Source: Tieghemostelium lacteum
Taxonomy: Eukaryota
Reading direction: 5' to 3'
Length of the DNA stretch: 64,000 nucleotides
NCBI GenBank assembly: GCA_001606155.1
Contig: LODT01000028.1
Coordinates: 470,735 to 534,734 of the forward strand
Shown: piece after piece, positions 1 through 54,743 of the stretch
Position numbering within the stretch: the stretch's first letter is position 1
Layout: each line of letters opens with the position of its first letter
Notes under the pieces: generated by a model
What the model was told of the DNA's origin: nothing
Database searches by the model: none
The model's input: only the letters and a program-made list of their open reading frames with translations
Program-made: the position numbers and the translations under genes

Positions 1-197
1 CATCTACAACAGCTGCAACAACATCTGAAACAAATACTGAAACTATAAATTTGGCAAATAACTATAGTTCTATTTACTATCTATTCAACATTCATTTATT
101 TAAATTGATTTTAAAGTAAGTTTGTTAAAAATAACCAAAATTTGGTGGTTTAATAGAGTGTTCTAACATTAATGTATATTCAAATTTTAAAAACAGA

Positions 198-1810
198 ATG
201 GAGTTTGATGATATTGTTTATCTATTAAATGATTACTATATTGAAGATGATGTTAATGGATATGATGATAATGATGATGAAGATAGTGATTATGAAAATA
301 TTGATGGTGAGGAATATATTGAAAATGTAGTAATCAATACCAATGCAATCAGTTCAGTTGTAGATGAGGATGACTATGTCTATGAACCATTTCAAACAAC
401 ATCAACAGATTTGAATGAGTTCTATCAGGACAATAAAGTCACGACTTGGTTGACAATATCCAGAAAATTAGAACCAATTATCAAAGCACTCTCTTATGAT
501 AATTTGATACAGGACACTGTTTGGGAGGATTTCTCTATTCTTGAAGATATCCAAGAGATCTCCACTCTCCTCTTCCAAAATCAAAATCTCAAAGAGATTT
601 ATGACTATTTCCCAAATTTTATCTATTTACTGCGTGATAGAATAGTTCACAAAACCACTGATATTCCATATATTTTACCAATAATTTTTAAAGTAATTCA
701 AGTTTCACCTGTAAATATAAATATACCCACTCATTATAACTACTTTGCCTAAACTAACAATATTTTAAATTTTATAAAATACAGGATGAATCCTCTGAAA
801 AACTATTAACACCATTCCAATTCAAAACTATCCTCTCCATTTTAGATAGTTTAGTTTGTATCAATAATCTACCAACTCAGTCTATTTTGGCATTAACCAA
901 ATACATATTAAAATATATGAACTATTTCCTGGATAGACTGTCATTCTGGGTAACTTTACCTAATGAACTCTTTAACCAAATCAATTCAAAATTTGAATTA
1001 GAATCTGTAAGTGTTAATAATTCTTTAATTGTATTTAATATTATGAAACTTTTATTAATATGAATTTGAATACAATTAGATATTAAATATAGTTAATTTT
1101 TATACAGAACATCCATTAAAAGAACAAGATAATGGTAACTGGAGTCAAACTATACTAAACAAGGGAATATTCTCTCAATATATGAATCTAGTTATTACTA
1201 AATTACTTGTGAACTCTGATGAAACCTCTATCAGAGCTGTTTCCATGTTTTGTTGTAAATCTGAAATGTTGAGTCATTTCATTCAAAAAGTACCTGAATT
1301 TATAGATTTGGTATTAAAGAATGAAAGATTCTCTGAGGAATTTGATCACTATCGTACCGTATGGTTCTTTATCCTATCTATACATCCTTTAAATCAATCT
1401 GATAAAGATAGTTATACAAATCAATTCAGTATGTATATTTACTGTTAACATTCCATTCACCAACATGTTCAATATCTCTAACACACATTTTATACAAATA
1501 TTTAATAGTTGATGGATTAGTAAAATCTGTTGAAAAAATTGAGTCAAAAGATAAAATTGCAATTCAAAAACTTGAAACCATCTTATCAATTCTTGTCATT
1601 TCGAAACAGAGTAATTCCAATCAATGGATATTTTCAAATGATAGCTCTCCACTACCACACCAATTATTAACATATGAAAAGAAACTCAATCATATGAAAA
1701 CTCAATTAACTTCAACCACTAACACTAGTAACGAAACCACTAATGAATTTCAAATTTTCTCTACCATTAGATCTTATCTAAAGTATCTTAGAGGCGGTGC
1801 AAACAAATAA
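198..1810 (+). CDS. Multi-exon gene for an acidic protein of unknown function. The N-terminus is Asp/Glu/Tyr-rich (MEFDDIVYLLNDYY...). Proposed exons: 198..692, 785..1006, ~1164..1428, 1509..1810.
   Basis: The ORF runs 198-752. A GTAATT donor at 693 and a ...aaatacag acceptor at 784 give an in-frame exon 785..1006 (DESSEKLLTPFQF...), with a GTAAGT donor at 1007. The ORF at 1182-1448 continues after an acceptor I could not place exactly; CAAG at 1163 keeps the frame. A GTATGT donor at 1429 and a TTTAATAG acceptor at 1508 lead to exon 4, which ends at TAA 1808-1810. Phases are consistent for this model. Confidence 0.4.
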
Positions 1811-2406: not shown

Positions 2407-3759
2407 ATGAATTATGGCATGATGAATGGTAATTTATCAATGATACCACAACAACAACATATGGAAAACGGAGTTGAGGAAGATCCTAGATTAGATTTAA
2501 TTTTACAAACCTCACCATTTGAGGAAAAAGTAACAAGAAATGGTCTACAAAAATTGATTAGGGTGGTTATTAAAAACTCACCATTTAATGTACAGCTAAA
2601 ACTTAAAAAATCTGATATAGATTTGAACCATGTTGCATTTGAATCAACACTGTTGTATGACTACGATAACAATGAAGAGAAAGAAGTGGATTTTGTTAAA
2701 TGTAAACCAGTAGAGCACAAGGCCACACCAAATGAACAGGGTGATACCATTAATGTAGAATTACGTATTAAAGTACTTACCTCCCAACACGAGGATATGT
2801 TCTTTAGAGTCAAGGTTGAAGGACAAGATCCCATCACCAAAGAGCCTATCAAAGGTTTATTTTGCCAAACCAACCCAATAAAAGTAATCAGTAAACCTGA
2901 ACAATTGAAAAAGAAACAGCCACCCAAAAAGAGAACATGGAATGACATTTTGATGGAATCTGTCTCAAAAATTCAACACCAACAAAACGAACAACAAAAA
3001 CTCATTGAAAAACTCATTGATTACAATATAAAAACACCACATAATATATTGAATGCTACCACTTTGATGGCTCAAAACGGTGGATCTGGTGGTCTGTTGA
3101 CCGCGTCTGGCAGCTCTATACTAAACAACAACAATAACAATAACAATCTAAATAGCGGAAAAACAGAATTTGAAGACTCTTTTAAACAGATGATGAATGC
3201 CTACACTCTTTTGGACCCTAGACAGAGGGCTGAAAAAGTTCGTAGAGTATTTCGTAATGCTTCTTCTAGAGACTCAGAAACTCTCTCTGAGTTACTGGAT
3301 CTTTTCATTACTGAAGGTGTTGGTGGTCCTCTTGGTACCATTGCTCCATTGCCTATATCCAACACACACGCCAACCAACAAATCACACAACAGCAACCTA
3401 TGAACATCTCTTTGAATAATAACAACAATCTCAATAGCTCACCTCTACTTCAATCACAAACATCACAACACCCACATTTACAACAACATTTACATTTACC
3501 ACAACAACAAAACACTACAACCACTAACAATAGCCTATCTCAATCAAACCAATCTCAAAACTCTGCACATCAACCCAACCCATTTTTAAATCACAACAAT
3601 CAATCACAACCTAACCAAAATCAACAAAATCAACAAAATCAAAATCAATCAAATCAAAACAGTAATGGTGAATATCCATTCTTTTCTACAATTCCAACTT
3701 CTTTTGACAATGAATTTAATTCATTTGGTAGCGGTAACAATGATTTTATTCAATTCTAG
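2407..3759 (+). CDS. Asn/Gln-rich nuclear-type protein of unknown function, with a basic KKKQPPKKR patch and long poly-N and poly-Q tracts.
   Basis: The continuous ORF is 2359-3759. The track start is GTG, and the first ATG is at 2407 (MNYGMMNGN...). Low-complexity N/Q runs are typical of dictyostelid nuclear proteins. I recognise no domain. Confidence 0.5.
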   Translation: MNYGMMNGNLSMIPQQQHMENGVEEDPRLDLILQTSPFEEKVTRNGLQKLIRVVIKNSPFNVQLKLKKSDIDLNHVAFESTLLYDYDNNEEKEVDFVKCKPVEHKATPNEQGDTINVELRIKVLTSQHEDMFFRVKVEGQDPITKEPIKGLFCQTNPIKVISKPEQLKKKQPPKKRTWNDILMESVSKIQHQQNEQQKLIEKLIDYNIKTPHNILNATTLMAQNGGSGGLLTASGSSILNNNNNNNNLNSGKTEFEDSFKQMMNAYTLLDPRQRAEKVRRVFRNASSRDSETLSELLDLFITEGVGGPLGTIAPLPISNTHANQQITQQQPMNISLNNNNNLNSSPLLQSQTSQHPHLQQHLHLPQQQNTTTTNNSLSQSNQSQNSAHQPNPFLNHNNQSQPNQNQQNQQNQNQSNQNSNGEYPFFSTIPTSFDNEFNSFGSGNNDFIQF

Positions 3760-4023
3760 ATCTCATTCATTAAAAATCAAACTCAACTATAAAAAATTCT
3801 CCAAAAATAACTGTCTCCCCTCCCCCATCTAACCTCCTTTTTTCCCCTCTCTCAAACTAAAACTTTCTCACACAATCATCTTGATGTAAAACTATATATA
3901 TAAATATTAATTGATATTGTAAATAAAAATATTAATTTTGCCAATGAATTTGAATACAACTAATATACAAAATGGTGGTGTTCTGTGGGTGTTTATTACT
4001 TTTCACTACTGTGGAGACCTACT

Positions 4024-7000
4024 CTAATAGATACCAAGTTGCTTTTTCATTTGCTCTTGTTTCCATACTTTTTGATTATCAAATTCACTCTTTGTCATTT
4101 TAAAGTGTTGGAAAAAGTCATCATCAGAAAGATATCTTTCCAATTTTGTTTTATCCAATGCTCTAGGTGGATGTTGAAGTTCATCCAAAGTATATTGTCT
4201 ATTAAGTTCACTCAAATAATCTTTGACCAAAACCATCTCTTCACAAGCTGGATTATGAATTTGAGTTTTTTGATCATTCCAACAATGGAAATATCTTCTG
4301 AATACTTTTGGTTCCAAACTGGATTGTATCAAATAACAGTTTAATAACACCTGGAAATTATCTTCACTTCCATCAACCATATTTGTTTTCTTTGCAACCA
4401 ATTGTGTATACTCCAAAACAGTGTTCATGGATTGAAGTTTTTCATCTTGTGTTGCATTTCTTCCTATCCAGAGGAAAATCATACTACCAACATCCAAAAT
4501 CATAACATCTTCATCATCAAGGTCTTGCTGGTCAAATTCAAATACTCTGTCAACTTTAAATGTACCAGATGAATACGAGCATTGATAGAGTTTTGGAGTT
4601 TGTTCTAATTTAAAACTAATAAAACTATCAGTTACCTCCTCTTCATCTTTTTCTTTAAAGAGATTAATGAATTCCAGAGGTTCTTGATCTTCCAATACCT
4701 TAATTATATCTATACCATTATACATTCTTTCAATGGTTTTATCGACTATTTCTTCAATATCTAAAATATTAGATGAGTAGTTACCTTTCCAAAGATAAAT
4801 ATTAAACACTTCCTCTTGAATTGTTGTTTTTACAATTTCATATTCTTCTTGTTGATCCTCTTCTTCTTCCTTCTTGTTTTCTTGATCACCATCAATATTA
4901 ATCTCATCGTTGTCTACATCTATAACTTGTTTTGCTGGTTTTGGTTTTACAATGAGTTCTTCTCTAACTGTATCTTTAACAGTGAACTCTTCAACCAATA
5001 TATAGTCATTGGAATTCAAATTACCAATATAGAAATCTCTAGTTACCAAAATTCTAAGATTTACATTATCACTATTATTGAAATGGTTACAAGACTTGAT
5101 ATGATACATTTTCTTATAGGGAGCTTGTTTTAGAAGTGTCTTATCATTATCCATTAAACCTTGGTGAATGGTAATACTTCCTTTGAATATTTTCATAAAA
5201 TGTACTGGCTCCTTGTTCTGAACGACACGTATCTGTTGTGCTACACCACCGATACTATCATCAAGATCAACAGTCAACAATGCGCTGGAACCCTTTTCAT
5301 TAATTGTTGATTTCTTTCCTTGCCAGAAATAAATGACATAGTGATCTTTGTTCTTTTGTTGATATTTATATAAAATTACATAACTCTCTCCATCATAAAA
5401 GTGACCATAGAGTTCGTTAGGCACAGGTTCTTTGGTGTGGTCTTTAACTCTCCATATCTGTACACTACCATTACCATCATCAATAACTCTACTGAAATAT
5501 ACAGGTGCTGGTAAACTCCATTGATCAATGATAGTCTGTGCTTTAAACTCTTCTTTCTTAACCTCTGCAACACGACCTTTTGCAATAGCCCCCATTGATA
5601 TAGGCAACGTGGAATTCCAATTAAAGAATTTTTCCTTAAACAATTCCGTCTCAGTACCTTCCGATATCTTCATTGGTTCAACCCATGCTGCTCTTCCTTT
5701 ACGTTTTTTCATAAACTCTTTAGTAAAGCTCATACAATGTTTCTTTACATTTTGATTCGACTGTTTACCAACCCATACATAAACCTCAGTCCAAGAGTCC
5801 AGAATATAGGTAAATTGATTCTGTTCCAAAAGAATCTCTTTCACCATTTTACCATTTGGATCTGGCGAAACTGCCTTTTCAGCGGATATCTCTGAACTTT
5901 CTTCAAGAAAATTCAACTGGTACAGTAAATCCTTATGTTTGATAGGTTTCTCAGAATCAGATTCTGGGATTTGTCCTGATGGTTTACCGCCTGGAATAAG
6001 AGACCAGAACTCATCTTCACCAGGTGACTTCTTGCCTTCTTCAATGACCTTTATTTGGGGTCTACCAGACCGTTCCTTGTTCTTTATACGACCTGCCAAA
6101 TCCATAGCTTTAGCAATTTGCATTTTATTTGATTTTGAACCTCTCCATTCATAGATGACAGATAAAGTGTCTAAAACATAACAGTTATTGCATCTGAATG
6201 ATTGACTTGACAACTCAACTAATCTAGGAATAATATTTTTTCTTCCGGTACATTGAATTAGTCTGAGATCAACTTGAGTATTGGTACTATTTAATTTCAT
6301 ATTCTTAAACTCTTGTAAGATGTCTTCAGATGATTGGTTTCCTTTTACACCAACAGATGCCAATAAACCAAATCCAGTGACAACTGAGCTTATATTAGTT
6401 CTAGATTTACTGTTATCAGTTGTTGTCTTGCTATTGGAATTCTGCATTGCCTTTATAGGATTAGCAGATGGCTTCTTTCTACCTGCTGGACCTATTGGTT
6501 TACTAATATTCTTTAATGTAGGTGACTGAATAGTAGTACCCATTGCAGCACCCAGAGTTGATTTAGTTTGTTGAGGTGTAGTAGTAACTTTAGAGGCAGT
6601 CTTTGTAGGAGTACTAGTTATTTTAGATGGTGTTTTAGTAATAGCTGTGCTTGTACTTTTAACAGGTGATTTTACAGCTACATTGCTACTTTTAGTTGGT
6701 GTCTTTGTAGTAGTAGCAGTAGTTTTAGCTGGAGCTTTTAATGCACTGGCACTTGTTACTGTAGTTTTTGCTGGTGTTTTAATTGAGGTTGTTGTAGCTG
6801 CCTTTGCTGGTGTTTTAGCAGTAGTGCTAGTTGTTTTAGCAGGTGTTTTAGCAATAGTACTAGTTGTTTTAGCTGGTACTTTTAAAACACTAGCAGAAGC
6901 TGATGTTGTTTTTGCTGGTGTTTTAATAGAGGTTGCTGTAGATGTTGAAGTGGTAGTAGTGGCTTTAGAAGCAGTAGTAGAAACTGCTTTACTTGGTGTT

Positions 7001-7869
7001 TTTATTGCTGGTGCTGTTTTAGCAGGTACTTTACTTCCTATGGATGTAGGTGTTGTTGTTGTTGTTGTCTTAGTTAGTACTTTAGCAGGGGTTGTTGCTG
7101 TTTTAACAGTTGCTTTGGTTGCTGTTGATGTTGAAGTTGAAGTTGAAGTTGTTTTAACTGGTGCTTTAATGGAAGTAGATGTTGTCGTAGTACTTGTTGA
7201 GGGTGGTTTTGTTATTTTAGTAGCAGCAGTGGATGTAGTTGTTTTTGGTGTTGCAGTTTTAGCTGGTAATTTACTAGTAGTTACTGAAATACTAGTTGGT
7301 TTTGCTACAATTTTTGAAATTGTAGGTTTATCTGTAACTATAGATTTTGTATTTGTTGATGAAGTAGATTTAGTGGTAGTTGTAGTTGTAGTTTTCAAAG
7401 TTGTTGTAGTGGATGTTGTGGATTTTGTAGACTTTGAAACTGCAGTAGTTCCACTAGGTTTCTTTACTATTGCTGTAGCTGGTTTCTTAATTGAGGATGT
7501 TGTGGTAGTGGGTTTCTTAACAGATGAGGGTGAACTAGTAGATGTTGTAGCAGTAGTAATTGTAGTTGTAGTATTAGGTACAACTGCAATCTCATCTTTC
7601 TGTTCAACCTTATCTTTGTCCACTTTTGTTACTTGATCTTCTGAATTATCTGTTGAAACTGTAAATGTTGTAGTGGTAACAGTTGGTTCTACTACAACTT
7701 CAGTTGTAGTTAAAGATGTTTCTTTTACAGTTGTGTTACTATTCGATTTTGGTTTCAGTTGACTTGAGATTGTCGCTGGTTTCTTTATACCAGGTTTGGA
7801 AGTATCAGGTGACTTTGCATTTAAAGCAGATTTCTTTGAAGTAGGTGCCTGGATACTTTTTCCACTCAT
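4024..7869 (-). CDS. Villin/gelsolin-family actin-binding protein. It has a long Thr/Ser/Pro/Lys-rich repetitive N-terminal region, gelsolin-type repeats and a C-terminal villin headpiece. Similar in overall layout to GRP125/villidin.
   Basis: Single 1281-aa ORF. The C-terminus ...LDKTKLERYLSDDDFFQHFKMTKSEFDNQKVWKQEQMKKQLGIY matches the villin headpiece consensus (LE.YLSD.DF...F.M....F..LP.WKQ...KK...LF). The central part has gelsolin-like segments (WRVKDHTKEPVP..., FYDGESYVILYKYQ..., QIWRV). The N-terminal 450 aa are TTTS/KTPAKTTS repeats. Confidence 0.8.
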   Translation of the reverse strand: MSGKSIQAPTSKKSALNAKSPDTSKPGIKKPATISSQLKPKSNSNTTVKETSLTTTEVVVEPTVTTTTFTVSTDNSEDQVTKVDKDKVEQKDEIAVVPNTTTTITTATTSTSSPSSVKKPTTTTSSIKKPATAIVKKPSGTTAVSKSTKSTTSTTTTLKTTTTTTTKSTSSTNTKSIVTDKPTISKIVAKPTSISVTTSKLPAKTATPKTTTSTAATKITKPPSTSTTTTSTSIKAPVKTTSTSTSTSTATKATVKTATTPAKVLTKTTTTTTPTSIGSKVPAKTAPAIKTPSKAVSTTASKATTTTSTSTATSIKTPAKTTSASASVLKVPAKTTSTIAKTPAKTTSTTAKTPAKAATTTSIKTPAKTTVTSASALKAPAKTTATTTKTPTKSSNVAVKSPVKSTSTAITKTPSKITSTPTKTASKVTTTPQQTKSTLGAAMGTTIQSPTLKNISKPIGPAGRKKPSANPIKAMQNSNSKTTTDNSKSRTNISSVVTGFGLLASVGVKGNQSSEDILQEFKNMKLNSTNTQVDLRLIQCTGRKNIIPRLVELSSQSFRCNNCYVLDTLSVIYEWRGSKSNKMQIAKAMDLAGRIKNKERSGRPQIKVIEEGKKSPGEDEFWSLIPGGKPSGQIPESDSEKPIKHKDLLYQLNFLEESSEISAEKAVSPDPNGKMVKEILLEQNQFTYILDSWTEVYVWVGKQSNQNVKKHCMSFTKEFMKKRKGRAAWVEPMKISEGTETELFKEKFFNWNSTLPISMGAIAKGRVAEVKKEEFKAQTIIDQWSLPAPVYFSRVIDDGNGSVQIWRVKDHTKEPVPNELYGHFYDGESYVILYKYQQKNKDHYVIYFWQGKKSTINEKGSSALLTVDLDDSIGGVAQQIRVVQNKEPVHFMKIFKGSITIHQGLMDNDKTLLKQAPYKKMYHIKSCNHFNNSDNVNLRILVTRDFYIGNLNSNDYILVEEFTVKDTVREELIVKPKPAKQVIDVDNDEINIDGDQENKKEEEEDQQEEYEIVKTTIQEEVFNIYLWKGNYSSNILDIEEIVDKTIERMYNGIDIIKVLEDQEPLEFINLFKEKDEEEVTDSFISFKLEQTPKLYQCSYSSGTFKVDRVFEFDQQDLDDEDVMILDVGSMIFLWIGRNATQDEKLQSMNTVLEYTQLVAKKTNMVDGSEDNFQVLLNCYLIQSSLEPKVFRRYFHCWNDQKTQIHNPACEEMVLVKDYLSELNRQYTLDELQHPPRALDKTKLERYLSDDDFFQHFKMTKSEFDNQKVWKQEQMKKQLGIY
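6560..7620. repeat. Degenerate tandem coding repeats of about 30-33 nt encoding Thr/Ser/Ala/Lys/Pro repeats (KTPAKTTSTTA-type) inside the villin-like gene.
   Basis: There are repeated units gctggtgttttagcagtagt... / ggtgttttaatagaggttg.... On the antisense strand they give an artefactual poly-Val ORF (6647..7636). Confidence 0.6.
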
Positions 7870-9547
7870 AATTGTAATTATTTTTTAATTTTATCTCCAC
7901 TCATCCAACAGTGTTAATAAAAAATATCTATCTAAATAGTTTTTTTTTAAATTATGTGGGGTGAATCTGAATGGTGAGAAAATATCCAAATAAATTTTTA
8001 TTTATGATTTATAAATACTTTTGTGTATATATATTTAAATGTATATATCTTATCTCATTGAGCAATTTAATTTTTTAATGTTCAGTTATTACAAATTAAT
8101 CTATATTATAAATTTGGGTGGGCAAGCACTAAAAATCAATTTTGAAGCTCCAACACAATCCAATTTAAAAAATGTGGATATGTCCAAATGTAAATGAAAG
8201 AATAGAATGGGAACTATTCGATTACTTTAATAGGTGTAGGTAGGAAATGAACAATGTTGTTGTCATAGGAATACCTCGATTTTAAAAGTTAAAATAGAGG
8301 TCAAAAACTCTTTTATAAAAAAACAGATATTTTAGAATAATTCCAATGATCTAATTTTTATGTGTTTATGATGAAACATTAACAAATAAAATAAACAAAT
8401 AAAAAATAAAAGAATATCGTGATCAGGCATCATAAATTCAATATTGCAATGAATCATTTAACTGCATTTTTTACCCTATCCTTCCTCAATCCGTCCTCTA
8501 AAAAATTTAAATATTTTAGTTTATGATTCATAAACTGACAAAAGGTCCACCTTGTAAAAAAAAAAAAACAAATTAAATTTTTTTAAAAATATTACAATCC
8601 TATTTAATTTATATTGAAAAGTATATTTTAAGATTTTTATTTATAAATATATATTTTATATTATCTTTCAACTGTTTTTTTTAGGGGTTACAACAGAGAA
8701 ATTAATATTAACAACACTATTGGAAAACTTAAATAGAACAATTATTCATATTGTAAAGAGAGTCTTTCAGAAAGGGTACTCTCTAATCTCAACTAGTTAA
8801 ACAACGAAATTCGAATAATTTACTACATATAGGTAAGCTTTTGATTTGATTAAGCCTTTTGAAAATTGGAATTTCATTGGTTAGTGTTGTTCAACTAAAA
8901 ACAATAATTGTGACATGTATGACAATGTGTGGGATGTTTTTGTGTGGTTATGTATTTTTTACAAGCGAACAACTTTTATATTTTGGGGTGGTTACTTTAA
9001 TATTTATATTTAAATATCTTTAATAAATTTAATTAAAATCTCTTAATGATATTTATATTCATATTATACTTGTAATGCCTTATTAATATACACTACAATT
9101 TATATAGTTATAAATGATGTTATTTGATGGGAACCACCCCTTCACCCTCACACACCAAAAAATTGAAAATTAAAGAAAGAGTGAAAAAAATAATTACAAT
9201 AATATAATTCATCTCTCATTTTGTGTTTATACTTTTTTCCAAATTCCTCCCCCCCCCCCAAAGATACCCAACAACAATGTTCGTGTTTTAATCAAACAAA
9301 CACCATCATTAATTAATTTTTTGTAATATATTAATTTATTTTTTTTCCTTACCTCTAATACCAGGACATTGGTTCTAATAACTTCTTATAATTTTTAATA
9401 TTCTTTAATTAATCTTATAATTACTTTAAAAAGCTATCTTTTTTGAAAAAAAAAATCTTACAGGTTACTCAAAGAAAAAAAAAAAAAAACAACTACAAAA
9501 GAGGTTTTTACACAGACAGTTTTAAAGTCATTAGTCATAAAGATAAA

Positions 9548-22728: not shown

Positions 22729-24172
22729 ATGGACATCAAACATATAAATGATTGTAAAAAAGCTATTACAATTCAAATTCATGATTCAAAATACATTCCA
22801 GATAAACTTGTGGGATTGCAAGAATCTATTAACACACTAAACCAATTATTAGAAGAGATTATTCATCGTAAAAAGATGTGTGTTAAATTAATTACAGGTG
22901 CAAAAGGATGTGGTAAATCAACTGTAAGAATGACCAATTATTATAATATTACTTAGAATGAAAATAGAATTGACATATCAGTGTGTTTATATTTCAAATA
23001 AAATAGCTTTTTAGGTATTGTCTAAATAATTTCAGTGAAAGTAGCTATTCATTAATCGATATATCAGGTCTAAGATATTACAGTGACTATAAGACATTAA
23101 AAACAATTATCAGTGATTTAGAGTTACCTAAACCACCAAAATCCAAAGACACACCTAGTATGTTAAAGTATATAAAAGAGCAATTAGGTAAAGATTCAGC
23201 AGTACTCTCAAACACACAACTGAAACAAAAGAAATCCATTATTGTATTAGTAGATGATTTTGAGTTTCTTACACTACAGAACTCTAGATTATTCTTTTTA
23301 TATAATTTAATGGACTTACTACATTATAGGAATGTATGTTTATCATTCATCTGTATATCAACACCATATGATGTTGTAAATTCATTTGAAAAGAGAGTCA
23401 AATCTAGATTCAATCAGTTACCACTTAAAGTAAATCCACCTTCTACATTTGACTTCATTTGTGAGATAGTACACAATTCCATGACCATTCAACAAAAGAC
23501 ATTACAATATGGTAAATTAACAATATCAGATCGATTAGTTAAACTTTGGAATGATAACGTAACTCTTTTAATGAGAGATAAAGACTTTTTAACACAACTA
23601 GAATTCCACTATCGTTTATCAAATTCCATTTCCTATTTTCATTTAATTATTGTAAGTTTAAATTAGTTTACTTTCTAATTAGAAAATATTCTAACAAAGA
23701 TTATATATATTACTTATTTTAGTCAAAAACATTAAAGTTTATTGATGTGGATAATCCAGTTTTAACAGTAAATATACTAAAAGAAGCAATGAAAGAAATC
23801 TCTAGAAATACAAATGAAGATATTCTTTATAAAATATCAATTTTAGAATTTACACTACTTGGATGTATATTAAAATCAATGGAAAGTAAATCATTTCATC
23901 AACCTATACTGTTTATTGATTTATTTGAAAAGGAATATAAAAAATATGCTACCTCTTATTATAATGCCACTGAAGGTTTAGATAAACATTCATGTCTTTG
24001 TGCTATTGAAAATCTAATACATTTAGGTATGCTAGTAATACATGGTTCTCAAAATGGTGAATATACTCAATTCTATTTGAAAATTGACCCAGAAGATATC
24101 TTTCAAGTTGCACAAAATAGAGATGACTGTCCAACAGCTCTACAAAAATATATATGTTCATGGTTAGAATAA
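22729..24172 (+). CDS. AAA+ ATPase, probably origin recognition complex subunit 4 (ORC4-like). Three exons: 22729..22923, 23007..23651, 23723..24172.
   Basis: Walker A is LITGAKGCGKST and Walker B is SIIVLVDDFEFL, followed by a C-terminal winged-helix-like region. A GTAAGA donor at 22924 and an AAATAG acceptor at 23006 give intron 1. A GTAAGT donor at 23652 and a TTATTTTAG acceptor at 23722 give intron 2. All junctions are phase 0, and the length of about 429 aa suits ORC4. Confidence 0.5.
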
Positions 24173-45464: not shown

Positions 45465-47984
45465 ATGAGTAACTCAAAAAAGAAAGCAGCAGATACCAAA
45501 CCAAAGTCACAGGAAAATCTTATTCATAAGTTTTTTGATGTTTTACCAAATACAGTTAGCTCCTTAAGCCAATTCATGGGTTTTGGTGGTAATAAAAACA
45601 ATAGTACTTCAACTTCGACTTCAACTTCTACTTCAACTTCAACTTCAACTATAGATAATACCACAACAACTACTACTACTACAACAGTATCTACACCTAC
45701 ACCATCTACACCATTGGAATCTAGATTTAAATTACTTCCTTCACCACCACCACCACCATCCACACCAACTAAACCAACTTCTAAAAAGAAATCAGCAACA
45801 CCTAGAAAATCAAAACCTGCTGCGTCTAAAAAAAGTGATTCTGTAACACCAGCTAAAGGTCAAATTACCATTCAAAGCTTACTTGAAGAAAAGGAGTCAT
45901 CAGCATCAACATCTACACCTACATCTTCTAGAAAATCAAGTTATTCATCACCTCCTATACCTCAGGTTGTGATACCAGAGGTATCAGGAGCTATATCAAA
46001 TAGAAGTCCTGGAAAGAGAGTAATTACACCAGTCGCAAGAACCCTCTTTCAGACAGTACCAAGTAGATCATATACACCAAAAAAGAAGAATAATGAACCT
46101 GTTAAAAAGAAGATAAAATTAGATTCTAGTGAATCTAAAGATAAAGAGAGAGGGGTTATTGAGGATATATCAGAATCTGAAGAGGAGTCAACTTATGAGA
46201 ATTCACAGTCAGATTATTCAGATACTAGCTCATATGATGAGGACTCTAGTTATGAGGCATCAGATCATCCAATGTCCGTATCGGAGGATGAGAGTGAAGG
46301 TTCAGAGACTAGCGATTACGATGACAATAAAGGAAAGAAGAGAAAAAAACCTTCAAGTAATATAGGTGCACATAAAGCAATTTTGGGTAATCTAAAGAGT
46401 TTTGGAAAAATACCTGAAAAGAAGGTGGATATACCCACAAGTTCTCCACGTGATATACAGATGAATACCTCAACTGCATTGACAAAATCTAAAGTTTCAA
46501 CACCAAAATCAATAGTACAGAAAAAATTGGAGGATAGGTATGGAAATAAGATTTTGGTTGATGTAAAGAGTGATTTTAGAAGACCAAAGAATCAGGGTTT
46601 CTTGGTTGGAATGGGTAAAGAGAATACTACTGCTCAAGATACAATGATTTTACTTCGTGATTTTATAGAGGCTCCTTTTACGGTGGAGACTAATAGTAAG
46701 GTTATAGAGGAGTATCTCCCCACTCTGAAAAAATCTGAAAAATTATGTTTTTCAAATGATTATGAAAGAGTTATTGAAATGTCTCTTTTTGAGAGTTTGT
46801 TTAGTAAACAGGAGACATCGGAAGAGAATAGTGAATTTACTTGGTTTGTAGGTGGATATGTATCGGCTTTAGATTGGTGTCCTCTGCCAACTAATGTAAA
46901 TGAGACTAGAGATTTTATAGCGGTTGCTGCATATAGAGATCTGACGTCTTCACATTTGAAGAGAGAGATCTATAAAGGTAACAATATCATTCAGATTTGG
47001 GAACTGAATAACTTGGAGAAGTATTCGGATCATAAACCTAAATTGGCCTATGCCATTAAACACAATGGTAACTATGTAACTGAACTCAGATGGCTTCCAT
47101 GTGGTGGATATGTATCCTCTAAAGAACATGGAAATCAGAGAGTTGGTGTATTGGCAGCTGCATTTGGTGATGGGTCTGTAAAGATATATTCCATACCTCA
47201 CCCAGATGTAGTTCAAAAACATATTTCCTCTACTAAAATAGAGGTTAAAGATAGGGTTATACTACTCGATTTAGAACCTATATTTGATCAACCTGTGAAT
47301 TTAAGTCACGTCCCACAACTATTTAAAAGTAATTCTCAACCTGAGAGAGAATATGTATGTAATACACTCAGTTGGTCACCTACATATGATGAACAGAATG
47401 ACAGTCCTATGCTTTTATTAGGATGCACCAATGGTCTTATTCAAATGTATGATATAGGGTCTATATTACCATGGAAGAAAAATGGTAAAAAACTTAGTTA
47501 TGAAACTAGATTCATCATTCCTATTTTCATGTCACAAGAAAAACAGGAATGTTCTTCAGTTGCCTTCTCACCTCTTGACAAGAACCTATTTGCAACACTT
47601 GCACGTAGAAATGTTTGCCTATGGGATAGACGTCAACCTGAGAAACCAGTACTCTCTAATCTTTGGATGTTCTCTTCCAAAGCCACATTAATATGGCCTA
47701 GAACCAAACTACCTTGCCTCCTATTAACAGAAGCAAATTGCATCAAAGTCTATGATTTAGTAACTGGATCTCATCTAGTAATGGCAATCTCAGAATTTGA
47801 TATCAACAATATAGATGTTTCCTACAGTAAAAGATTTTTATCAGCATCTTCTAGTGAAGGAAGCTTAAAAATCCTCCCACTTTATCCTGAAAGAAGAAAC
47901 TATATCAGTGAACCAATTATCAATTTAGAATCTATAAAATTAAAACCTGAAGAAAACAATAACCAAGAAAACAATAATCAAGAA

Positions 47985-48024
<40 letters not shown>

Positions 48025-48305
48025 GTAGTAATAGTAATAATATAGAAGAAAAAGAAAGTATATTTATGTTATCAAATAGAGAAGATCGTGTTGAAATACA
48101 AAATCCTAAAGTATTTGGCAGTAAACCACTAACACAGATTAAACCATTAGAGAGTGTTTATTTCCCAGATAGAAGAGCTTCCATTACTTGGACTACTTGG
48201 TGCCCAAACAAACAAAATCAAAATTGGGTTGTTTATTCAACTGGATTTGGTATAGTTAGATGTAAATATTTTGATCAAACTCTTAAATCTAATTATAAGG
48301 GATAA
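45465..48305 (+). CDS. WD40-repeat protein with a long N-terminal Ser/Thr/Pro-rich and acidic low-complexity region. Possibly a TFIIIC-subunit-like or chromatin-associated WD protein.
   Basis: 946-aa ORF starting MSNSKKK. It has (ST)n and poly-T/P tracts and acidic SD/SE clusters. The C-terminal half has WD-like units (IQIWELNN...GNYVTELRWLP, GVLAAAFGDGSVKIYSIP, LLLGCTNGLIQMYDI). I have no confident orthology. Confidence 0.5.
45598..45660 (+). repeat. Hexanucleotide microsatellite (ACTTCN)n encoding (ST)n inside the WD-repeat gene. A further (AAT)n microsatellite lies at 47990..48040, encoding poly-Asn.
   Basis: acttcaacttcgacttcaacttctacttcaacttcaacttcaact and aataataataataataataataataataatagtagtaatagtaataat. 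Confidence 0.7.
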
Positions 48306-49490
48306 CTTTATCATTAAATATCTTATATATTTCTAATTATCAAGTTGTAAATGTTATCATTTCAGCATTTATGTTATAAATTATAATCAAACAATTTTTT
48401 TTTATTCACTAAGTTGATATCTTCTTGTCAAATTACATTGAAATAGTTAAAATTCTTGTGATAACTGCTGAAAATTTCGAAAAAACATATATATTAAATA
48501 GATATGTTATAGATAGAAACATCCAGTGGGGTATATATATATATTAATTCATTTCAAATTGTTATTTTCTAATCTAAATAGAAAACAAATAGGGATAAAA
48601 TGTAATATATTGATATATATTTAGGTTTTAAATAATATATTCCAAATTTATTCAAAAATTAAATTTAAATAGTAAATATGAAAGAGTAATACCTTATTTT
48701 GATAAAAATTTTTACTTTAAGTAATTTTGTGCATCAGATCAAAGTTTATAATATTTTTATTATTCTACTACACTTCTATCAACTAAATCAATTGTTATTA
48801 TTCACTCAGTACTACTATTAAAAATCTAAATATAAAATAAATTGATTATCTTCATCTTTTCTTTTTCTATTTTTTTAATTTTCATTTTTGATTTTATAGA
48901 ATACTGAATTTTCAATTTGCCTTATAACAACAATGGTTAGCGAAGAGATTGATAAGTAAGTTAATTTCAATACCGAATCAATATCAACAACCAATCTCTT
49001 TACTTTAATTTAATAGTGTTTTAAAATATTTCACCAATTTCACTTAATCTCTTATCCAACATATTAATACTTTAATACCTAAATAAATTTATAAACTTTA
49101 TAATAATTAAAAATTGTGTTTTTAGTTTCACATTTTAGGATAATTAGAATAATATCAAATAGAAGAGTATAAAAATTATAAAATGGAATTTCAACTGTTC
49201 TAAAGTAATTTTTTATTTTAGAGACATACGGAAAGGGGTTAGATTAAATATTTTATTTTTTTATATTTTTTAAAAAAAACATAACCTCAATCTCTGTAAT
49301 AATTATTTTATTTGATATCCTCATTGTAGATAAATTTGTGATTAAACAAAACATACAGAATAATAGATAATTCTATTTACTTTAACCAATGAAATATTTT
49401 GGTTATTCAATATTGTTGATTATATTGATTTCATTTCATTTAACGACTTTAGTTGTTTCTGGTATGTTTGGAATAAGGATAGGATAGTTA

Positions 49491-52400
49491 GTGATATCAC
49501 AAGAGAGTATTAATATAACTCAAAACTCAGAGTGGAATCAATTTAGTTTTCAAGGAGATGCACCAAAATCTAGGTTTGGACATTGTATGATAACTATTCA
49601 ATCTAAATTGTATAATAATGTAAATCAACAGTCACTATTAAAGAGTAGTGCTATTAGTAGTAGTAGTAATAATGTAAAATTACAAATTGTAAATAGTAAA
49701 CAAGAACAAATCGAATATAATAGTGATGATAATTATAATGTACATAGTAAAAGTGATATAGATTTTCAGAGATCTATAAATAAGAAGAAGAATTTAATAT
49801 TAAGAGAAACACCTACACCTACTGAATCTATACTTAGTAATAATAATAATAGTTATTGGATATATGGTGGAAGATATTCGTTTAGTAGTAATTTAGTAAC
49901 TACACCTCTGTTACTATTAAAAGATCTAACTGGAAAATTCGCAGAACAATCATTTTCATTGGGTTTGAATCCTGGGTCGAGATGGGGACATGCATGTCAT
50001 ACAGTTGGTTTCTATGATAATGCCACTGAGATTTTGGTATTTGGTGGTAGTACTGATGTTAATGATTTAGAGGTTAGTGGTCAACTTTGGAAATACTCTA
50101 TATTACTAAATAGTTGGAAACTTTTAACAGATTATCAAGCACCCATTTCAAATTCTACATCCTCTTCATCTTCTTCGAGTGGTAATGATACTTTGGTTGT
50201 AGATTCATTATCTTCATTATCATCATATAGTGATGATGGTACATCTAATATATCTAAAATTGTAATGGCGACTGTTACCCCTGTGATACCTAATGAATTA
50301 TTTCCATATCCTCGAACAATGTTTGGAAGTTGTACTAATGGTACATTTTTATTTATATTTGGAGGTTATGTAAATAAATCTGGTGTTATGGTAGCGGAAG
50401 ATGATTTTTGGATGTACAATATGATTAATCAGACTTGGATTCAATTTAAACCACAAGACGATGGTTTTAATTGGCCATCAGCTAGATTAGGTCATTCCAT
50501 GGTATTTGCTCAAAAGGCGTTATATTTATTTGGTGGATTAGAGATTTCAGAGAACTACAATTCAGCTAGCGACCAATTATGGAAATTCTCTTTGGTCACT
50601 TTAGAATGGACATTACTGTTTGACGAAAGTCCTTCACCAAGTGCCAGGGCATATCATACAATGGTTGTAGACTCAAAGAAAGAAACTGCATTCTTTATAT
50701 ATGGTGGTATTGATAGATATCAACTAACTCAGAGTGATCTATGGATTTATGATTTGGATTCTGAAGAATGGGATAATATTGAAACTAGTTTTGAGTCTCC
50801 TGAACTCAGTCACAGTGCCATGACACTGTCTTCGGATGTCAATGGATTTCTAATGTATGGTGGAACTGGTAGTGACCCATCTTCCTTCCTCTCCTATGGA
50901 CTAGACTGTAATTGTAATAGTAGAGGTGGATGTTTCTATGGTATTTGCAGTTGCTTTTCTGGTTACTTTGGAGAGTACTGTCAAAATAGTATCGATGGAC
51001 CTATTCTATTAGGATTAGGGCTGGCAATCAGTGTGCCTATTTTATGTTTTGGTTGGTGTGTTCTTAGATGTACCACATTACCAACTCGTATGAAAATTCT
51101 TACACTGATTATCATTGTCATGTCATGCTCGTTATTTGCAAGTGTTGAGTCATGTTTGGAATGTTGGTTACCAGAGGCTCTAATGGGTCTGATTACAGGT
51201 TCTATTGGTCTATTAGGTATACTGAAATACAAAAACCCCAAGATTATATTGTATTTCACTATATCTGTATTTTTGACATTGGGTGTGGGTGTCTATGGTG
51301 TAGTTTCATTCCTACCATCTTGTATGATGGGTAATTGTAGAAATGATAAACCAAAAGAACAATGGCTTCCCAAGTATGCCATTATAATGTCATTTGTCCA
51401 CTTGGCATTTTTAGTACTAGTTTTACCATTATCTTTAAAACTATACAAACATAGAAGATATATCAATACCATCAGTAATAATCCAGCAATTGCCTCGTCA
51501 TCTAGTGGTTTATTGTTTAGTAATAATGGGTTACCTCAACAACCTTTGAATCCATTGTTAAAGAAGATTCAAGAAAATGAACAAAAAGAAAAGAATCCAA
51601 ATAATAACAATAGTGATTCAAATGGTTCTAATGATACCTACACATCAGAACAAAATCAAAAGGCACTTAATTACCTACAAAAAGAGTATAATTTAAGATC
51701 AGATCTAAATAAGATTCGTGTGAGTAAGAATACGGCTGAAGAACTTAGAATTAAAGTGGATAGAGAACATATTCTAGAGGATACTTATAGACAGTTAAGT
51801 CAAGTACCAACTCAACAACTAGTTCAGAATATCTCCATTAAGTTTATTGGAGAAGAAGGTGTAGATATGGGTGGTTTGAAAAAAGAATGGTTTTCATTGG
51901 TGTTCAAGCAACTCTTTGATCCACTCTATGGCTTATTTGTATTGAATACTAACTATTCATTGTCTATAAGTCCAACATCACATTTACAACCTGACCATTT
52001 AGCATATTTTTTATTTGGTGGTAAAATGGTTGCTAGGTCGGTTATTGAAGGTGTGCATTTGGATCACACATTTTCACGAACAATTTACAAATTGATTTTA
52101 GGTAAACCACCATGTCTTGATGACTTGATTTATGTTGATCCGGCATTCCACAAGAGTCTTTTATGGATTCTTGAGAACTCTGTTGATGAGATGGAAGAAG
52201 TCACATTTTCAACTACAGTCGATCAAATTGGTGTTGGTCATGTTCTAGTCGATTTGAAACCTAATGGAAGAGATATACTTGTAAATGAAGATAACAAACA
52301 AGAATTTGTAGATCTAATGACACTTTGGAGATTCCAAAGAGATATCTCTGATCAAGCCTACCATTTTATTCAAGGTTTCCGTGAAATTATCCCTCTTGAG

Positions 52401-52814
52401 TTAATATCAAATTTCACTGAATGTGAATTAGAATTGTTTATTTGTGGTCTTGTAGAGATTGATATTGGTGATTGGAAAGCTAATACAACCTATCGTGGTT
52501 ACACAGCAACCTCTTCAGTTATTGAATGGTTTTGGGAGGTTGTAGAGGAAATGGAAATTGAAGATCGTATTCGTCTATTACAATTTGTAACTGGTAATGC
52601 TAGATTACCACCATCTGGTTTCCAAGGTCTACATTCTGCAGAAGGTTCTGTTAAATTCCAAATTCACAAATCCTTTACCCCTGATAATCAACTGCCAGTT
52701 GCTAGAACATGTTTTAATCGTTTGGATCTTCCAAATTATGATTGTAAAGAAAGATTAAAATATTACCTAATTTTAGCACTTAAAGAAGGTCTACCTGGTT
52801 TTGGATTAGCATAA
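49491..52814 (+). CDS. HECT-domain E3 ubiquitin ligase with an unusual N-terminal kelch-like beta-propeller region, an EGF-like Cys module and a multi-pass transmembrane segment.
   Basis: The C-terminus ...FQIHKSFTPDNQLPVARTCFNRLDLPNYDCKERLKYYLILALKEGLPGFGLA is the HECT C-lobe with its catalytic Cys context. The N-terminus has kelch-like blades (WIYGGRYSF, ILVFGGSTD, LFIFGGYVN, LYLFGGLE, FFIYGGID). The EGF-like module is CNCNSRGGCFYGICSCFSGYFGEYCQN. About 5 hydrophobic helices follow between aa 500 and 650. Confidence 0.75.
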   Translation: MISQESINITQNSEWNQFSFQGDAPKSRFGHCMITIQSKLYNNVNQQSLLKSSAISSSSNNVKLQIVNSKQEQIEYNSDDNYNVHSKSDIDFQRSINKKKNLILRETPTPTESILSNNNNSYWIYGGRYSFSSNLVTTPLLLLKDLTGKFAEQSFSLGLNPGSRWGHACHTVGFYDNATEILVFGGSTDVNDLEVSGQLWKYSILLNSWKLLTDYQAPISNSTSSSSSSSGNDTLVVDSLSSLSSYSDDGTSNISKIVMATVTPVIPNELFPYPRTMFGSCTNGTFLFIFGGYVNKSGVMVAEDDFWMYNMINQTWIQFKPQDDGFNWPSARLGHSMVFAQKALYLFGGLEISENYNSASDQLWKFSLVTLEWTLLFDESPSPSARAYHTMVVDSKKETAFFIYGGIDRYQLTQSDLWIYDLDSEEWDNIETSFESPELSHSAMTLSSDVNGFLMYGGTGSDPSSFLSYGLDCNCNSRGGCFYGICSCFSGYFGEYCQNSIDGPILLGLGLAISVPILCFGWCVLRCTTLPTRMKILTLIIIVMSCSLFASVESCLECWLPEALMGLITGSIGLLGILKYKNPKIILYFTISVFLTLGVGVYGVVSFLPSCMMGNCRNDKPKEQWLPKYAIIMSFVHLAFLVLVLPLSLKLYKHRRYINTISNNPAIASSSSGLLFSNNGLPQQPLNPLLKKIQENEQKEKNPNNNNSDSNGSNDTYTSEQNQKALNYLQKEYNLRSDLNKIRVSKNTAEELRIKVDREHILEDTYRQLSQVPTQQLVQNISIKFIGEEGVDMGGLKKEWFSLVFKQLFDPLYGLFVLNTNYSLSISPTSHLQPDHLAYFLFGGKMVARSVIEGVHLDHTFSRTIYKLILGKPPCLDDLIYVDPAFHKSLLWILENSVDEMEEVTFSTTVDQIGVGHVLVDLKPNGRDILVNEDNKQEFVDLMTLWRFQRDISDQAYHFIQGFREIIPLELISNFTECELELFICGLVEIDIGDWKANTTYRGYTATSSVIEWFWEVVEEMEIEDRIRLLQFVTGNARLPPSGFQGLHSAEGSVKFQIHKSFTPDNQLPVARTCFNRLDLPNYDCKERLKYYLILALKEGLPGFGLA

Positions 52815-52904: not shown

Positions 52905-54743
52905 TTAATGTTGCGAATCATTAGAGTTTATATCATCATCTAATAAATCATTATCTTTTTGACGTAGTTTTTGGTCTTGATAGACAGAGAATGTAAGTGT
53001 ATTTAGAAATTCAGATATCCAATGCTGATCTTGAACACTTTGAAATTCAGTTTGAATAAAAGATTCTTTTAAAAAGATGGAAATGGTTTTGTTGTGAGTG
53101 ACATTACGTATACAATGTCTTTGGAAATTGTCAAAGAGATTAGTGAGGTAAGTCTCAATTGATTGTGTGAAACCTTGTAAAATCACCTCTTGTTCTTTGG
53201 ATGGTGTATAACATAACTGTTGTTGCTTGGTATTGATGGTAGCACGAAGTTTGTTAGATGCCTGAATCATCTTATTTGCCAAATCTGTCCATTTTGGGAA
53301 TATTTCAACCATGGTTTTAGAGATGATTTTGTTTTGGTCAATATCAACTAAAACAATCTCTGAAGTATCGACATCTGGTGGTACCTGTGTGAGACCAATG
53401 ATATATGGTACTGGTGCTGACAATAGATCGTGTACAGATAGTGTGGAAACTGCACTTGGTAGCAATGGTAATATTACACTTTGATACTGAAATGGTTTTA
53501 ATAGGCTAATAACTGAAAAAATGATAGATGTAAGACATCTAGGTGATTTACTAAAGAATACCACTTTTTTCTCTAACAAAATGGAATTTAAAATTACCAA
53601 AATTGTCTTGTGAGTCAATAATTGTAATGTAACAAATAATCCATAATCTAAAAGATAATCTCTGTAGTCTGAAGTTACATCTTCCTTATCTTTTAAAAGA
53701 CCTCTCTGATATTGTACTTTTTGTTCCAATAATTTAATTTCATATTCAATCTGACCTCCATGTAATGGTATTGGTTGATTATAAAAATATTCAATCAATT
53801 CCAAAATTGGTTTTTTCTTTTCACTAATATTATTATTACTATCTAAAACTGAACTATTAGATTCAATTTTAATTTGATTATCATTAATCTGAAATGTTGA
53901 AGTTAATTTTGGTGGTTTTCTATTCTGTGAGATTATATTTTGGAATCTTGAAATCTCTTGGAAATGTTGAATTGCCAATACACCTTTAATAATCTCAAAA
54001 TGTAGAGGTAACAAGGGGTATCTAGTCAAAATAACATATGATTTTGGAGCTGTTAGAATGGTTTCACCAACTTGTTGAATATAGTCATTGGGACCTGGAT
54101 ATTCATCTACATCAATTTCATATTTTTCGCCAGGTAATAGGGAACCAATTTGTGTTATTTTAGTTGTACAGACACCGTATAGAATTTGTTTCTTTTCATC
54201 AGTCAACATGAATATAAATGAGTCCTCTGGTTGTTTTAAATGTCTCTGAGGGTATAACATCTGAAATAGGTTGGTATGCGAAGCAGTTTGTGAGACTGCA
54301 GTCACTGGGATGCCATTAGGAAATGGGAAATACTCTACACTGATATTCTCCAAAGACTTATCAGGTGGATATTGATATAATATAGTTGGTCTCTCTTTGG
54401 AGACTGTTTCCGGTTGGCTATTTACAGTTGCTGACTTAATTAAAGGTGGTTTTGGAGGTGGTGTAGGTGGAGGTGTAGTAGTAATATTGTTAGATGTAGT
54501 AGTTGTAGTAATTGTATTTGGTGTCTGAACAGTTTCAGATGGTTTAACACCAATAACTAGAAACCATTCAAATAGTCTAGGTCTATCCAGTGTTGATGAT
54601 TTTCTTCTAACACCAGAATAATTGAGTCTACTTATTCTCTCATCGTTTGTTAATGCTTCTACATCTGGTAATGTTACATCTAATTGTTTTCTACCACTAG
54701 CAGTTCTTTTATGGGTTTTTATAAAAGATGGTATCTTTAACAT
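52905..54743 (-). CDS. DENN-domain (uDENN/DENN) protein, a putative Rab GEF.
   Basis: The 612-aa ORF starts with an ATG. The uDENN-like pattern is ISVEYFPFPNGIPV...DSFIFMLTDEKKQILYGVCTT, followed by a DENN-like core. A Thr/Pro-rich linker is present. Confidence 0.55.
   Translation of the reverse strand: MLKIPSFIKTHKRTASGRKQLDVTLPDVEALTNDERISRLNYSGVRRKSSTLDRPRLFEWFLVIGVKPSETVQTPNTITTTTTSNNITTTPPPTPPPKPPLIKSATVNSQPETVSKERPTILYQYPPDKSLENISVEYFPFPNGIPVTAVSQTASHTNLFQMLYPQRHLKQPEDSFIFMLTDEKKQILYGVCTTKITQIGSLLPGEKYEIDVDEYPGPNDYIQQVGETILTAPKSYVILTRYPLLPLHFEIIKGVLAIQHFQEISRFQNIISQNRKPPKLTSTFQINDNQIKIESNSSVLDSNNNISEKKKPILELIEYFYNQPIPLHGGQIEYEIKLLEQKVQYQRGLLKDKEDVTSDYRDYLLDYGLFVTLQLLTHKTILVILNSILLEKKVVFFSKSPRCLTSIIFSVISLLKPFQYQSVILPLLPSAVSTLSVHDLLSAPVPYIIGLTQVPPDVDTSEIVLVDIDQNKIISKTMVEIFPKWTDLANKMIQASNKLRATINTKQQQLCYTPSKEQEVILQGFTQSIETYLTNLFDNFQRHCIRNVTHNKTISIFLKESFIQTEFQSVQDQHWISEFLNTLTFSVYQDQKLRQKDNDLLDDDINSNDSQH

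Follow-up and report, generated by a model that had tools for sequence, protein, structure and literature searches.

We analyzed a window of 64,000 nucleotides (nt) of nuclear DNA from Tieghemostelium (formerly Dictyostelium) lacteum (contig LODT01000028.1, positions 470,735 to 534,734 of the forward strand; GenBank assembly GCA_001606155.1), which is 31% G+C and carries poly-N and poly-TS runs. Analysis of open reading frames (ORFs) identified on the plus strand a frame of 1107 stop-free codons (49491..52814, TAA at 52812-52814) that encodes, in this order, a kelch-like propeller, an EGF-like module, a transmembrane (TM) region and a HECT ubiquitin ligase domain. A first-pass annotation of the window had assigned these parts to one gene, and both the unbroken frame and seven other amoebozoan proteins of the same order bear this out. 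It had also noticed an upstream, in-frame small ORF resembling a signal peptide; this ORF was recovered from 49389, encodes MKYFGYSILLIILISFHLTTLVVSGMFGIRIG and terminates at the TAG at 49485-49487. We report here that the stop between the two frames is an ordinary short intron, and that the resulting two-exon gene probably encodes an 1118-residue polytopic, receptor-type HECT ubiquitin ligase (Table 1).

Gene structure and the 5' intron

The first-pass annotation had concluded that no acceptable intron joins the two frames, because it paired the donor only with the AG inside the TAG, which leaves 26 nt. We listed all GT..AG pairs by which the two ORFs can be joined into one stop-free reading frame. 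With the donor GTATGT at 49462 they yield introns of 30, 42, 69 and 93 nt, and the 69-nt solution, a phase 1 intron (GTATGT...AACTCAG) closed by the CAG that ends at 49530, removes the in-frame TAG. The spliced product, MKYF...TTLVVS-EWNQFSFQGDAPKSRFGHCM..., is 1118 residues long and is identical over 100% of its length (100% identity) to GenBank KYQ92994.1 (UniProt A0A151ZGK4), which carries the database name 'putative E3 ubiquitin-protein ligase [Tieghemostelium lacteum]'. This match is not independent evidence, because T. lacteum gene models are mostly Augustus predictions, many of them later revised by RNA-seq (PMC5282741).

As a size reference, the window was scanned for obligatory introns, defined by flanking open frames of at least 60 codons and a stop on read-through. 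Six loci were found, with shortest solutions of 63, 71, 72, 73, 75 and 80 nt, and all six donors were GTAAGT or GTATGT. Since the obligatory introns measure 63-80 nt, an intron of 69 nt is typical of the window and introns of 26-42 nt are aberrant. The 30-nt and 42-nt introns (same donor, acceptors 49491 and 49503) remove the stop and keep the EW residues, yet were rejected because they are shorter than every obligatory intron in the window, add 4-12 residues before EW that are seen in no orthologue, and differ from the deposited protein. Introns with acceptors further downstream (93-435 nt) were rejected because the conserved EW...RFGH strand is lost.

The junction produced by the 69-nt intron (..VVS|EW..) agrees with that of every orthologue with an intact 5' end. 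In these proteins the hydrophobic N-terminus ends in V-x-[S/A] with [E/D]-W directly next to it, and R-[F/Y]-x-H lies about 12 residues further on; the junction V-x-[SA]|[ED]-W was found in six orthologues. The closest case is a metagenomic dictyostelid protein, P0164, which reads ...CIIYSVKS-EWYEFGFKKDPPKSRFGHCM and whose junction sequence, ...SVKSEWYEFGFKKDPPKSRFGHCM, compares with ...LVVSEWNQFSFQGDAPKSRFGHCM in the window protein. At the DNA level, P0164 (contig L001) is continuous through TCA GAA TGG (S-E-W), whereas the window reads TCT G, then the 69 nt, then AG TGG. P0164 is a single uninterrupted ORF of 3162 nt, including the signal peptide, and was found on four independent contigs, three of which have the length of an mRNA (about 3.5 kb) and might be transcript-derived. 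For Clastostelium recurvatum, the orthologue was assembled as a TRINITY transcript whose complete ORF has an identical layout. The stop between the signal-peptide ORF and the main ORF is thus part of an ordinary 69-nt intron.

Table 1. Coordinates of the HECT ligase gene, its encoded segments and the reference introns. Residue numbers are those of the 1118-residue spliced protein; identities were measured against the T. lacteum protein.
Feature	Position (nt)	Residues	Strand	Basis or remark	Identity among dictyostelids	Identity to Clastostelium
Exon 1	49389..49461		+	start codon, 24-residue signal peptide (MKYFGYSILLIILISFHLTTLVVS) and first base of codon 25		
Spliceosomal intron, phase 1, 69 nt	49462..49530		+	contains in-frame TAG 49485-49487		
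Exon 2	49531..52814	25-1118	+	ends with TAA stop; open frame, translation		
Kelch beta-propeller, six blades	49531..50897	25-480	+	Pfam kelch families, GG motifs, model, Foldseek	31-41%	24%
Low-complexity insertion 1	49602-49844	49-129	+	pLDDT<50; T. lacteum-specific, inside propeller blade		
Low-complexity insertion 2	50142-50297	229-280	+	pLDDT<50; T. lacteum-specific, inside propeller blade		
EGF-like six-Cys module CNCNSRGGCFYGICSCFSGYFGEYC	50907..50981	484-508	+	directly precedes TM1	70-73%	
Five-helix TM region	50988..51443	511-662	+	hydropathy, predicted helices, loop charges, per-segment identity		
TM1 GPILLGLGLAISVPILCFGWCVLRC	50988-51068	511-537	+	most conserved segment of whole protein	92-100%	77%
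Cytosolic linker	51444..51737	663-760	+	alignment, predicted helices 698-709 and 728-752		
HECT catalytic domain	51738..52811	761-1118	+	Pfam, PDB matches, Cys1085, -4 Phe	66-71%	49%
Candidate obligatory introns, other genes	1007-1079, 1429-1508, 23652-23722, 35113-35175		+	75-89% A+T; size reference		
Candidate obligatory introns, other genes	42028-42099, 42431-42505		-	75-89% A+T; size reference		

Predicted ectodomain, membrane region and HECT domain

The predicted signal peptide comprises residues 1-24, with a Kyte-Doolittle peak of 2.12 at residues 5-23, and V-V-S|E (V-x-S|E-W) at positions -3/-1 fits the signal-peptidase rule; cleavage is predicted at VVS|EW, between residues 24 and 25. 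The repeats that follow had been described as kelch-like, with at least five blades. The domain search placed seven kelch/propeller Pfam families above their gathering thresholds (E=3e-39 to 9e-07): PF24681 scored 134.9 bits and PF24981 126.1 bits (cutoff 50 each), Kelch_1/2/3/4/6 all exceeded their cutoffs, and the attractin/LZTR1 propeller model matched at E=2e-36. The propeller is real, and its blades number six rather than a minimum of five, because there are six hydrophobic-GG signatures (WIYGG, LVFGG, FIFGG, LYLFGG, FIYGG and LMYGG). In an AlphaFold model, the predicted local distance difference test (pLDDT) score of the propeller was 70-89 outside two low-complexity insertions, and Foldseek superimposed it on the six-bladed kelch domains of ESP (5gq0), TFP (5a11) and LZTR1 (9mez), with a TM-score to target of about 0.75. 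The nearest solved sequences are those of BSU1, the dynein heavy-chain N-terminus, KLHDC2 and LZTR1 (E ~1e-14).

The two insertions are in frame and stop-free, and in the insertion region P0164 has about 30 residues vs about 85 in T. lacteum; some of the inserted sequence could be an in-frame intron that has escaped annotation. Behind the propeller lies the Cys-rich motif that the first-pass annotation had called EGF-like. The cysteine pattern stands, with six Cys that fit C-x-C-x2-G-Y-x4-C, and the Pfam models EGF_TEN, EGF_Teneurin and EGF_2 (E=0.003-0.05, 14-18 bits) fall below their cutoffs of 22-65. Model confidence in this module was below 50, and Clastostelium retains four of the six Cys.

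Hydropathy analysis gave five hydrophobic segments, each of which is also a predicted helix (residues 513-536, 541-560, 567-589, 594-623 and 637-674), as the earlier count of about five hydrophobic helices had it. Because a cleavable signal peptide is combined with an odd number of TM helices, the N-terminus should lie outside and the C-terminus inside. Across six orthologues, the number of K+R residues assigned to the inside is 2 in loop 1, 2-4 in loop 3 and 4-5 after TM5, with 0-1 acidic residues each; the T. lacteum stretches read RCTTLPTRMK, KYKNPK and KLYKHRRY..., respectively. In the same six, the segment before TM1 and loop 2 (ESCLECW) hold 0-1 K+R. In the Cavenderia, Heterostelium, Polysphondylium violaceum and P0164 proteins, the density of N-x-S/T sequons in the ectodomain is 3-9 times that of the cytosolic part. 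HECT chemistry, for its part, requires a ubiquitin-loaded conjugating enzyme (E2~ubiquitin) in the cytosol. The view that the topology could not be decided from sequence was too pessimistic: the signal peptide, the five TM helices, the conserved charges, the sequons and the chemistry of the HECT domain concur, and from them we infer that the kelch and EGF parts are outside or luminal and that the HECT domain is cytosolic.

Within the membrane, TM1 is more conserved than the catalytic HECT domain by per-segment identity (Table 1). It presents a small-residue face (G-L-G-L-A, with G517, G519 and A521) and three Cys at its cytosolic end (CFGWCVLRC). This pattern suggests that TM1 most likely engages in a specific helix-helix contact, whether with a partner, with a substrate or with another copy of itself, and that it may be palmitoylated. 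A CxxCWLP motif in the predicted outside loop that connects TM2 with TM3 is kept as far as Clastostelium. Because of the conservation of TM1 and of this motif in loop 2, the membrane part appears to do more than anchor the protein passively and to be a functional module under constraint. Conserved Cys of the two predicted outside loops were noted at 51078-51092 and 51249-51305 (listed as residues 564-570 and 621-639), in the motifs S-C-x-x-C-W-L-P and, in dictyostelids, P-S-C-M-x-G-x-C; they suggest either that a disulfide staples the two loops together or that a redox-active CxxC is exposed to the lumen or the exterior.

The linker that follows TM5 begins with the basic juxtamembrane stretch KLYKHRRY, continues through a low-complexity part and leads to the HECT domain through the conserved short helices PLLKKI and KALNYLQKE. 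The first lies in a conserved motif, L-x-P-L-[LIMV]-K-K-[IM] (51534-51566, residues 693-703), which could be a docking or autoinhibitory element. The second (about 51654-51680, residues 733-741) is probably part of an N-terminal helix that extends the HECT domain.

The HECT domain itself matched Pfam PF00632 at 280.3 bits (cutoff 23.9; E=3.3e-83) over ORF residues 803-1106, and the match covers profile positions 2-305 of 306 and ends at the last residue of the protein. The nearest HECT domains in the PDB are those of HUWE1, SMURF2, ITCH, RSP5, WWP1/2, NEDD4 and TOM1 (E ~1e-94 to 1e-84). Cys1085 (nt 52710-52712), in ARTCFNRLDLPNY, aligned with the active site of HUWE1, AHTCFNQLDLPEY; a catalytic Cys 34 residues from the C-terminus and a Phe at position -4 occur in all eight family members, and the C-terminus reads ...GFGLA. 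Judged by these matches, the protein is a bona fide HECT E3 ubiquitin ligase (E3) of the NEDD4/HUWE1/TOM1 class. Neither C2 nor WW domains gave a Pfam match at E<=1 in the window protein, and because they are absent it is not a member of the NEDD4 family.

Distribution, orthologue models and neighbouring genes

Searched exhaustively with HMMER, a set of 1.84 billion cluster representatives gave 27,076 matches, of which four have the full architecture: a EukProt dictyostelid-like model, Cavenderia fasciculata DFA_05631, and proteins of Synstelium polycarpum and Clastostelium recurvatum. All four scored at least 603 bits, and the HECT-only proteins began at about 330 bits. Between the two lay P0015 (476 bits), an arachnid WWP1 duplication artefact that is not a family member; the metagenomic kelch-repeat protein P0016 was likewise rejected. 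Polysphondylium violaceum CYY_010244, Heterostelium album PPL_10746 and P0164 came from a further, profile-based search, P0164 being 80% identical to the P. violaceum protein. The search for orthologues with the same domain order thus yielded seven other amoebozoan proteins (eight members with T. lacteum), including one assembled from transcripts and one uninterrupted ORF. Apart from social amoebae, a single protosteloid was the only source of the full architecture among the 1.84 billion representatives. When JGI metagenomes were scanned with the EGF-5TM alignment, the full segment turned up only on the contig of the known dictyostelid protein P0164; L006-L008 from that scan matched in the EGF part only and were set aside, L007 being a bacterial EGF-repeat protein. 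As judged from the recovered sequences, the family spans all four classical dictyostelid groups and the protosteloid Clastostelium. Protein searches returned no orthologue from D. discoideum or D. purpureum, retrieval being incomplete and no eukaryotic genome collection being covered. A word-index search with the EGF and five-TM segment missed even the parent protein and carries no evidential weight; a full-length word-index search was overrun, with low-complexity words as the probable cause, and failed to recover orthologues seen by HMMER.

Some orthologue models are faulty. P0011 (2130 residues) has an oxysterol-binding-like part, ankyrin repeats and a cytochrome-b5-like part fused onto the ligase; P0013 (Synstelium) skips TM1-TM4 and has an unrelated N-terminus; and P0163 (P. 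violaceum) is without the signal-peptide exon, its start being placed at an internal Met.

Could the T. lacteum gene likewise be an artefact of prediction, either starting at an internal Met without the signal-peptide ORF or joining what are separate kelch/EGF/TM and HECT genes or a decaying pseudogene? The in-frame TAG would fit such an explanation, as would the computational origin of the T. lacteum models, many of them corrected by RNA-seq (PMC5282741), and the visible errors in P0011, P0013 and P0163. However, the frame stays open for 1107 codons across the kelch, EGF, TM and HECT parts, an identical order recurs in seven other species with purifying conservation throughout, and support comes from the Clastostelium transcript ORF and from the uninterrupted P0164 ORF, which includes the signal peptide. 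Moreover, the catalytic Cys and the -4 Phe are intact, and without a signal peptide five TM helices would place the HECT domain outside the cytosol, where it cannot work. We regard an artefact as very improbable.

Downstream, the gene converges with a minus-strand gene (52905-54743) for a 612-residue uDENN and DENN protein (Pfam DENN E=6.7e-21, uDENN E=1.4e-09), which is likely a Rab guanine nucleotide exchange factor. Because the two stops are only about 90 nt apart, the 3' untranslated regions of the HECT and DENN genes probably overlap. On contig L001, the convergent neighbour (3598-9422, minus strand) is a very large Roco-type protein with RhoGAP, myotubularin-related, leucine-rich repeat, COR and kinase parts; synteny is therefore not conserved on this side. 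Upstream, a plus-strand ORF of 946 residues (45465-48305) carries long TS, poly-N and acidic low-complexity tracts and gave only sub-threshold WD40/propeller matches in its C-terminal half (E=1e-4 to 3e-3).

A receptor-type reading and its relation to known ligases

The domain order, a signal peptide, a six-bladed kelch propeller, one EGF-like module, five TM helices, a linker of about 100 residues and a HECT domain, is conserved from the Dictyostelia to Clastostelium. The best reading of this order is a single-chain receptor-type HECT E3 that would ubiquitinate membrane proteins. We propose that the chain is inserted co-translationally and loses its signal peptide by cleavage at VVS|EW. The propeller and EGF module would then face the medium or an organelle lumen and recognise a ligand or partner, while the flexible linker would hold the HECT domain near the inner membrane face. 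There, the HECT domain would take ubiquitin from an E2 onto Cys1085 and pass it to lysines of nearby membrane proteins, or of the ligase itself, as NEDD4/RSP5-class enzymes do with membrane cargo, marking the ubiquitinated membrane proteins for endocytosis or degradation. TM1 might contact a partner, a substrate or another copy of itself through its small-residue face.

Several observations weigh against this reading. The features of a type-I-like Nout-Cin protein (signal peptide, five TM helices and positive-inside loops) are present at the sequence level, and it is on our own hydropathy and charge analysis at that level that the topology rests. Loop 4, modelled outside, is basic in dictyostelids (K+R 2-4); this loop is longer, of mixed charge and Cys-rich, and is the exception to the charge pattern. 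Sequon density in T. lacteum itself is uninformative (1.7 vs 1.5 per 100 residues). The full-length AlphaFold model, built from a 6-sequence alignment, is poor (mean pLDDT 52); it was used for secondary structure and the propeller only, and was rejected as a guide to helix packing or HECT orientation. By sequence the kelch domain is generic and not specifically attractin-like. Finally, the T. lacteum splice junction is predicted from genomic DNA and from orthologues, the identity of the product to KYQ92994.1 being non-independent.

In the usual view HECT ligases are soluble, and it is C2 domains or adaptors that bring them to membrane substrates. The window protein resembles NEDD4/RSP5, HUWE1/TOM1 and SMURF (class VI; Grau-Bove et al. 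2013) in a C-terminal HECT domain that is 40-45% identical to theirs, with the Cys at -34 and Phe at -4, and NEDD4/RSP5 likewise act on membrane proteins. In contrast to these ligases, the Pfam scan found no C2, WW, UBA or ARM-like regions in the window protein, and whereas they are soluble or peripheral, it is predicted to be integral to the membrane, with a signal peptide, a propeller outside the cytosol and five TM helices. The kinship to NEDD4/RSP5, which reach membrane cargo through adaptors, would suit a simpler arrangement in which the ectodomain and TM helices only tether a constitutively active Nedd4-like HECT domain, no signal crosses the bilayer, and cytosolic adaptors on the linker choose the substrates. 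The conserved linker helices PLLKKI and KALNYLQKE could serve such adaptors, and in the absence of C2 and WW domains membrane targeting must come from elsewhere. Nevertheless, a 480-residue six-bladed propeller and EGF module kept from the Dictyostelia to Clastostelium exceed the needs of a tether, as does a TM1 that is more conserved than the catalytic domain, and we think a mere anchor distinctly unlikely.

Membrane-integral HECT ligases do exist, as shown by PfUT of Plasmodium falciparum, a protein of 3893 residues with four predicted TM helices and an armadillo-like substrate-binding fold that has been localised experimentally to the endoplasmic reticulum (ER)/Golgi (PMC4022464). No kelch or EGF part is described for PfUT, and orthology is not evident, the apicomplexan matches in our full-length search being confined to the HECT domain. 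PfUT is the only membrane-spanning HECT protein that we found described, and its location (PMC4022464) raises the alternative of an ER/Golgi quality-control ligase of the same topology. Its luminal kelch and EGF parts would bind misfolded or glycosylated proteins of the lumen and membrane, the five-TM bundle would act like the membrane core of an ER-associated degradation ligase, and emerging clients would be ubiquitinated by the HECT domain. Conservation of the TM region, and of TM1 in particular, beyond what a simple anchor needs is consistent with this, and the luminal-loop Cys (CxxCWLP, SCMMGNC) suit an oxidising lumen. On the other hand, no ER-retention motif was noticed, in the Pfam scan the protein resembled neither Hrd1 nor Doa10 nor any TM family, the five helices with their short loops give no hint of a channel, and surface proteins, attractin and MEGF8 among them, typically have a kelch and EGF ectodomain immediately ahead of a TM helix. 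None of these points is decisive, and we consider the quality-control alternative unlikely.

The receptor-type reading finds its nearest functional parallel in animals, where MEGF8 or attractin with MGRN1 (and MOSMO) forms a membrane-spanning E3 that removes surface receptors (PMC12458338, PMC12752501, PMC13161197). In both cases the ectodomain, with its kelch propeller and EGF or EGF-like parts, leads into a TM helix and is linked to a cytosolic E3. However, the animal system consists of separate chains with a RING E3 recruited via a MASRPF motif, whereas the window protein would be a covalent fusion that uses HECT thioester chemistry, and attractin and MEGF8 have a single TM helix where the window protein has five. 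The MEGF8-MOSMO-MGRN1 complex as a whole also has one EGF-proximal helix and four further helices. The MASRPF motif is absent from the window protein, and CUB, PSI, C-lectin and laminin-EGF domains are absent in its Pfam scan. A specific homology of the ectodomain to attractin/MEGF8 was rejected because the nearest solved sequences are generic kelch domains and MASRPF is missing; the likeness is one of functional analogy, not homology. A further parallel is offered by RING ligases of the RNF43/ZNRF3 type, single chains with a signal peptide, a PA-domain ectodomain, one TM helix and a cytosolic RING, which down-regulate surface receptors. They share the single-chain plan of ectodomain, TM region and cytosolic E3 with the window protein and have no sequence relationship to it.

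Tentatively, we raise the possibility that the window protein is the first single-chain HECT receptor-type E3, in which recognition of a ligand or partner by the ectodomain, or of client TM helices by TM1, is relayed through the five-helix bundle to switch or position the HECT domain. It would then be an independent amoebozoan invention of the MEGF8-MOSMO-MGRN1 logic, and a signal from outside would directly control ubiquitination of surface proteins. To our knowledge, the receptor-type E3s that link an ectodomain to cytosolic ubiquitination are RING-based.

The first-pass annotation had called the architecture unusual for a HECT ligase, and the 2013 eukaryote-wide HECT survey is in keeping with this: 'transmembrane' does not occur in it, and it records kelch repeats in HECT proteins only in the brown alga Ectocarpus (PMC3673628). 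Among 8 million searchable papers we found neither the phrase 'transmembrane HECT' nor a description of a kelch/EGF/five-TM HECT family. The gene is already in the databases under a generic automatic name, but its architecture seems never to have been recognised as a family.

The family is confined to a small clade and its functional role is predicted from sequence, which limits its significance. Within these bounds, it would provide a compact one-polypeptide model for information transfer by membrane-spanning E3s. Experiments are feasible in relatives such as Heterostelium album (Polysphondylium pallidum), and the extreme conservation of TM1 points to a specific, testable intramembrane interaction. 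If the receptor-type reading is true, HECT chemistry, too, would be wired directly to an extracellular sensor in a conserved amoebozoan family.

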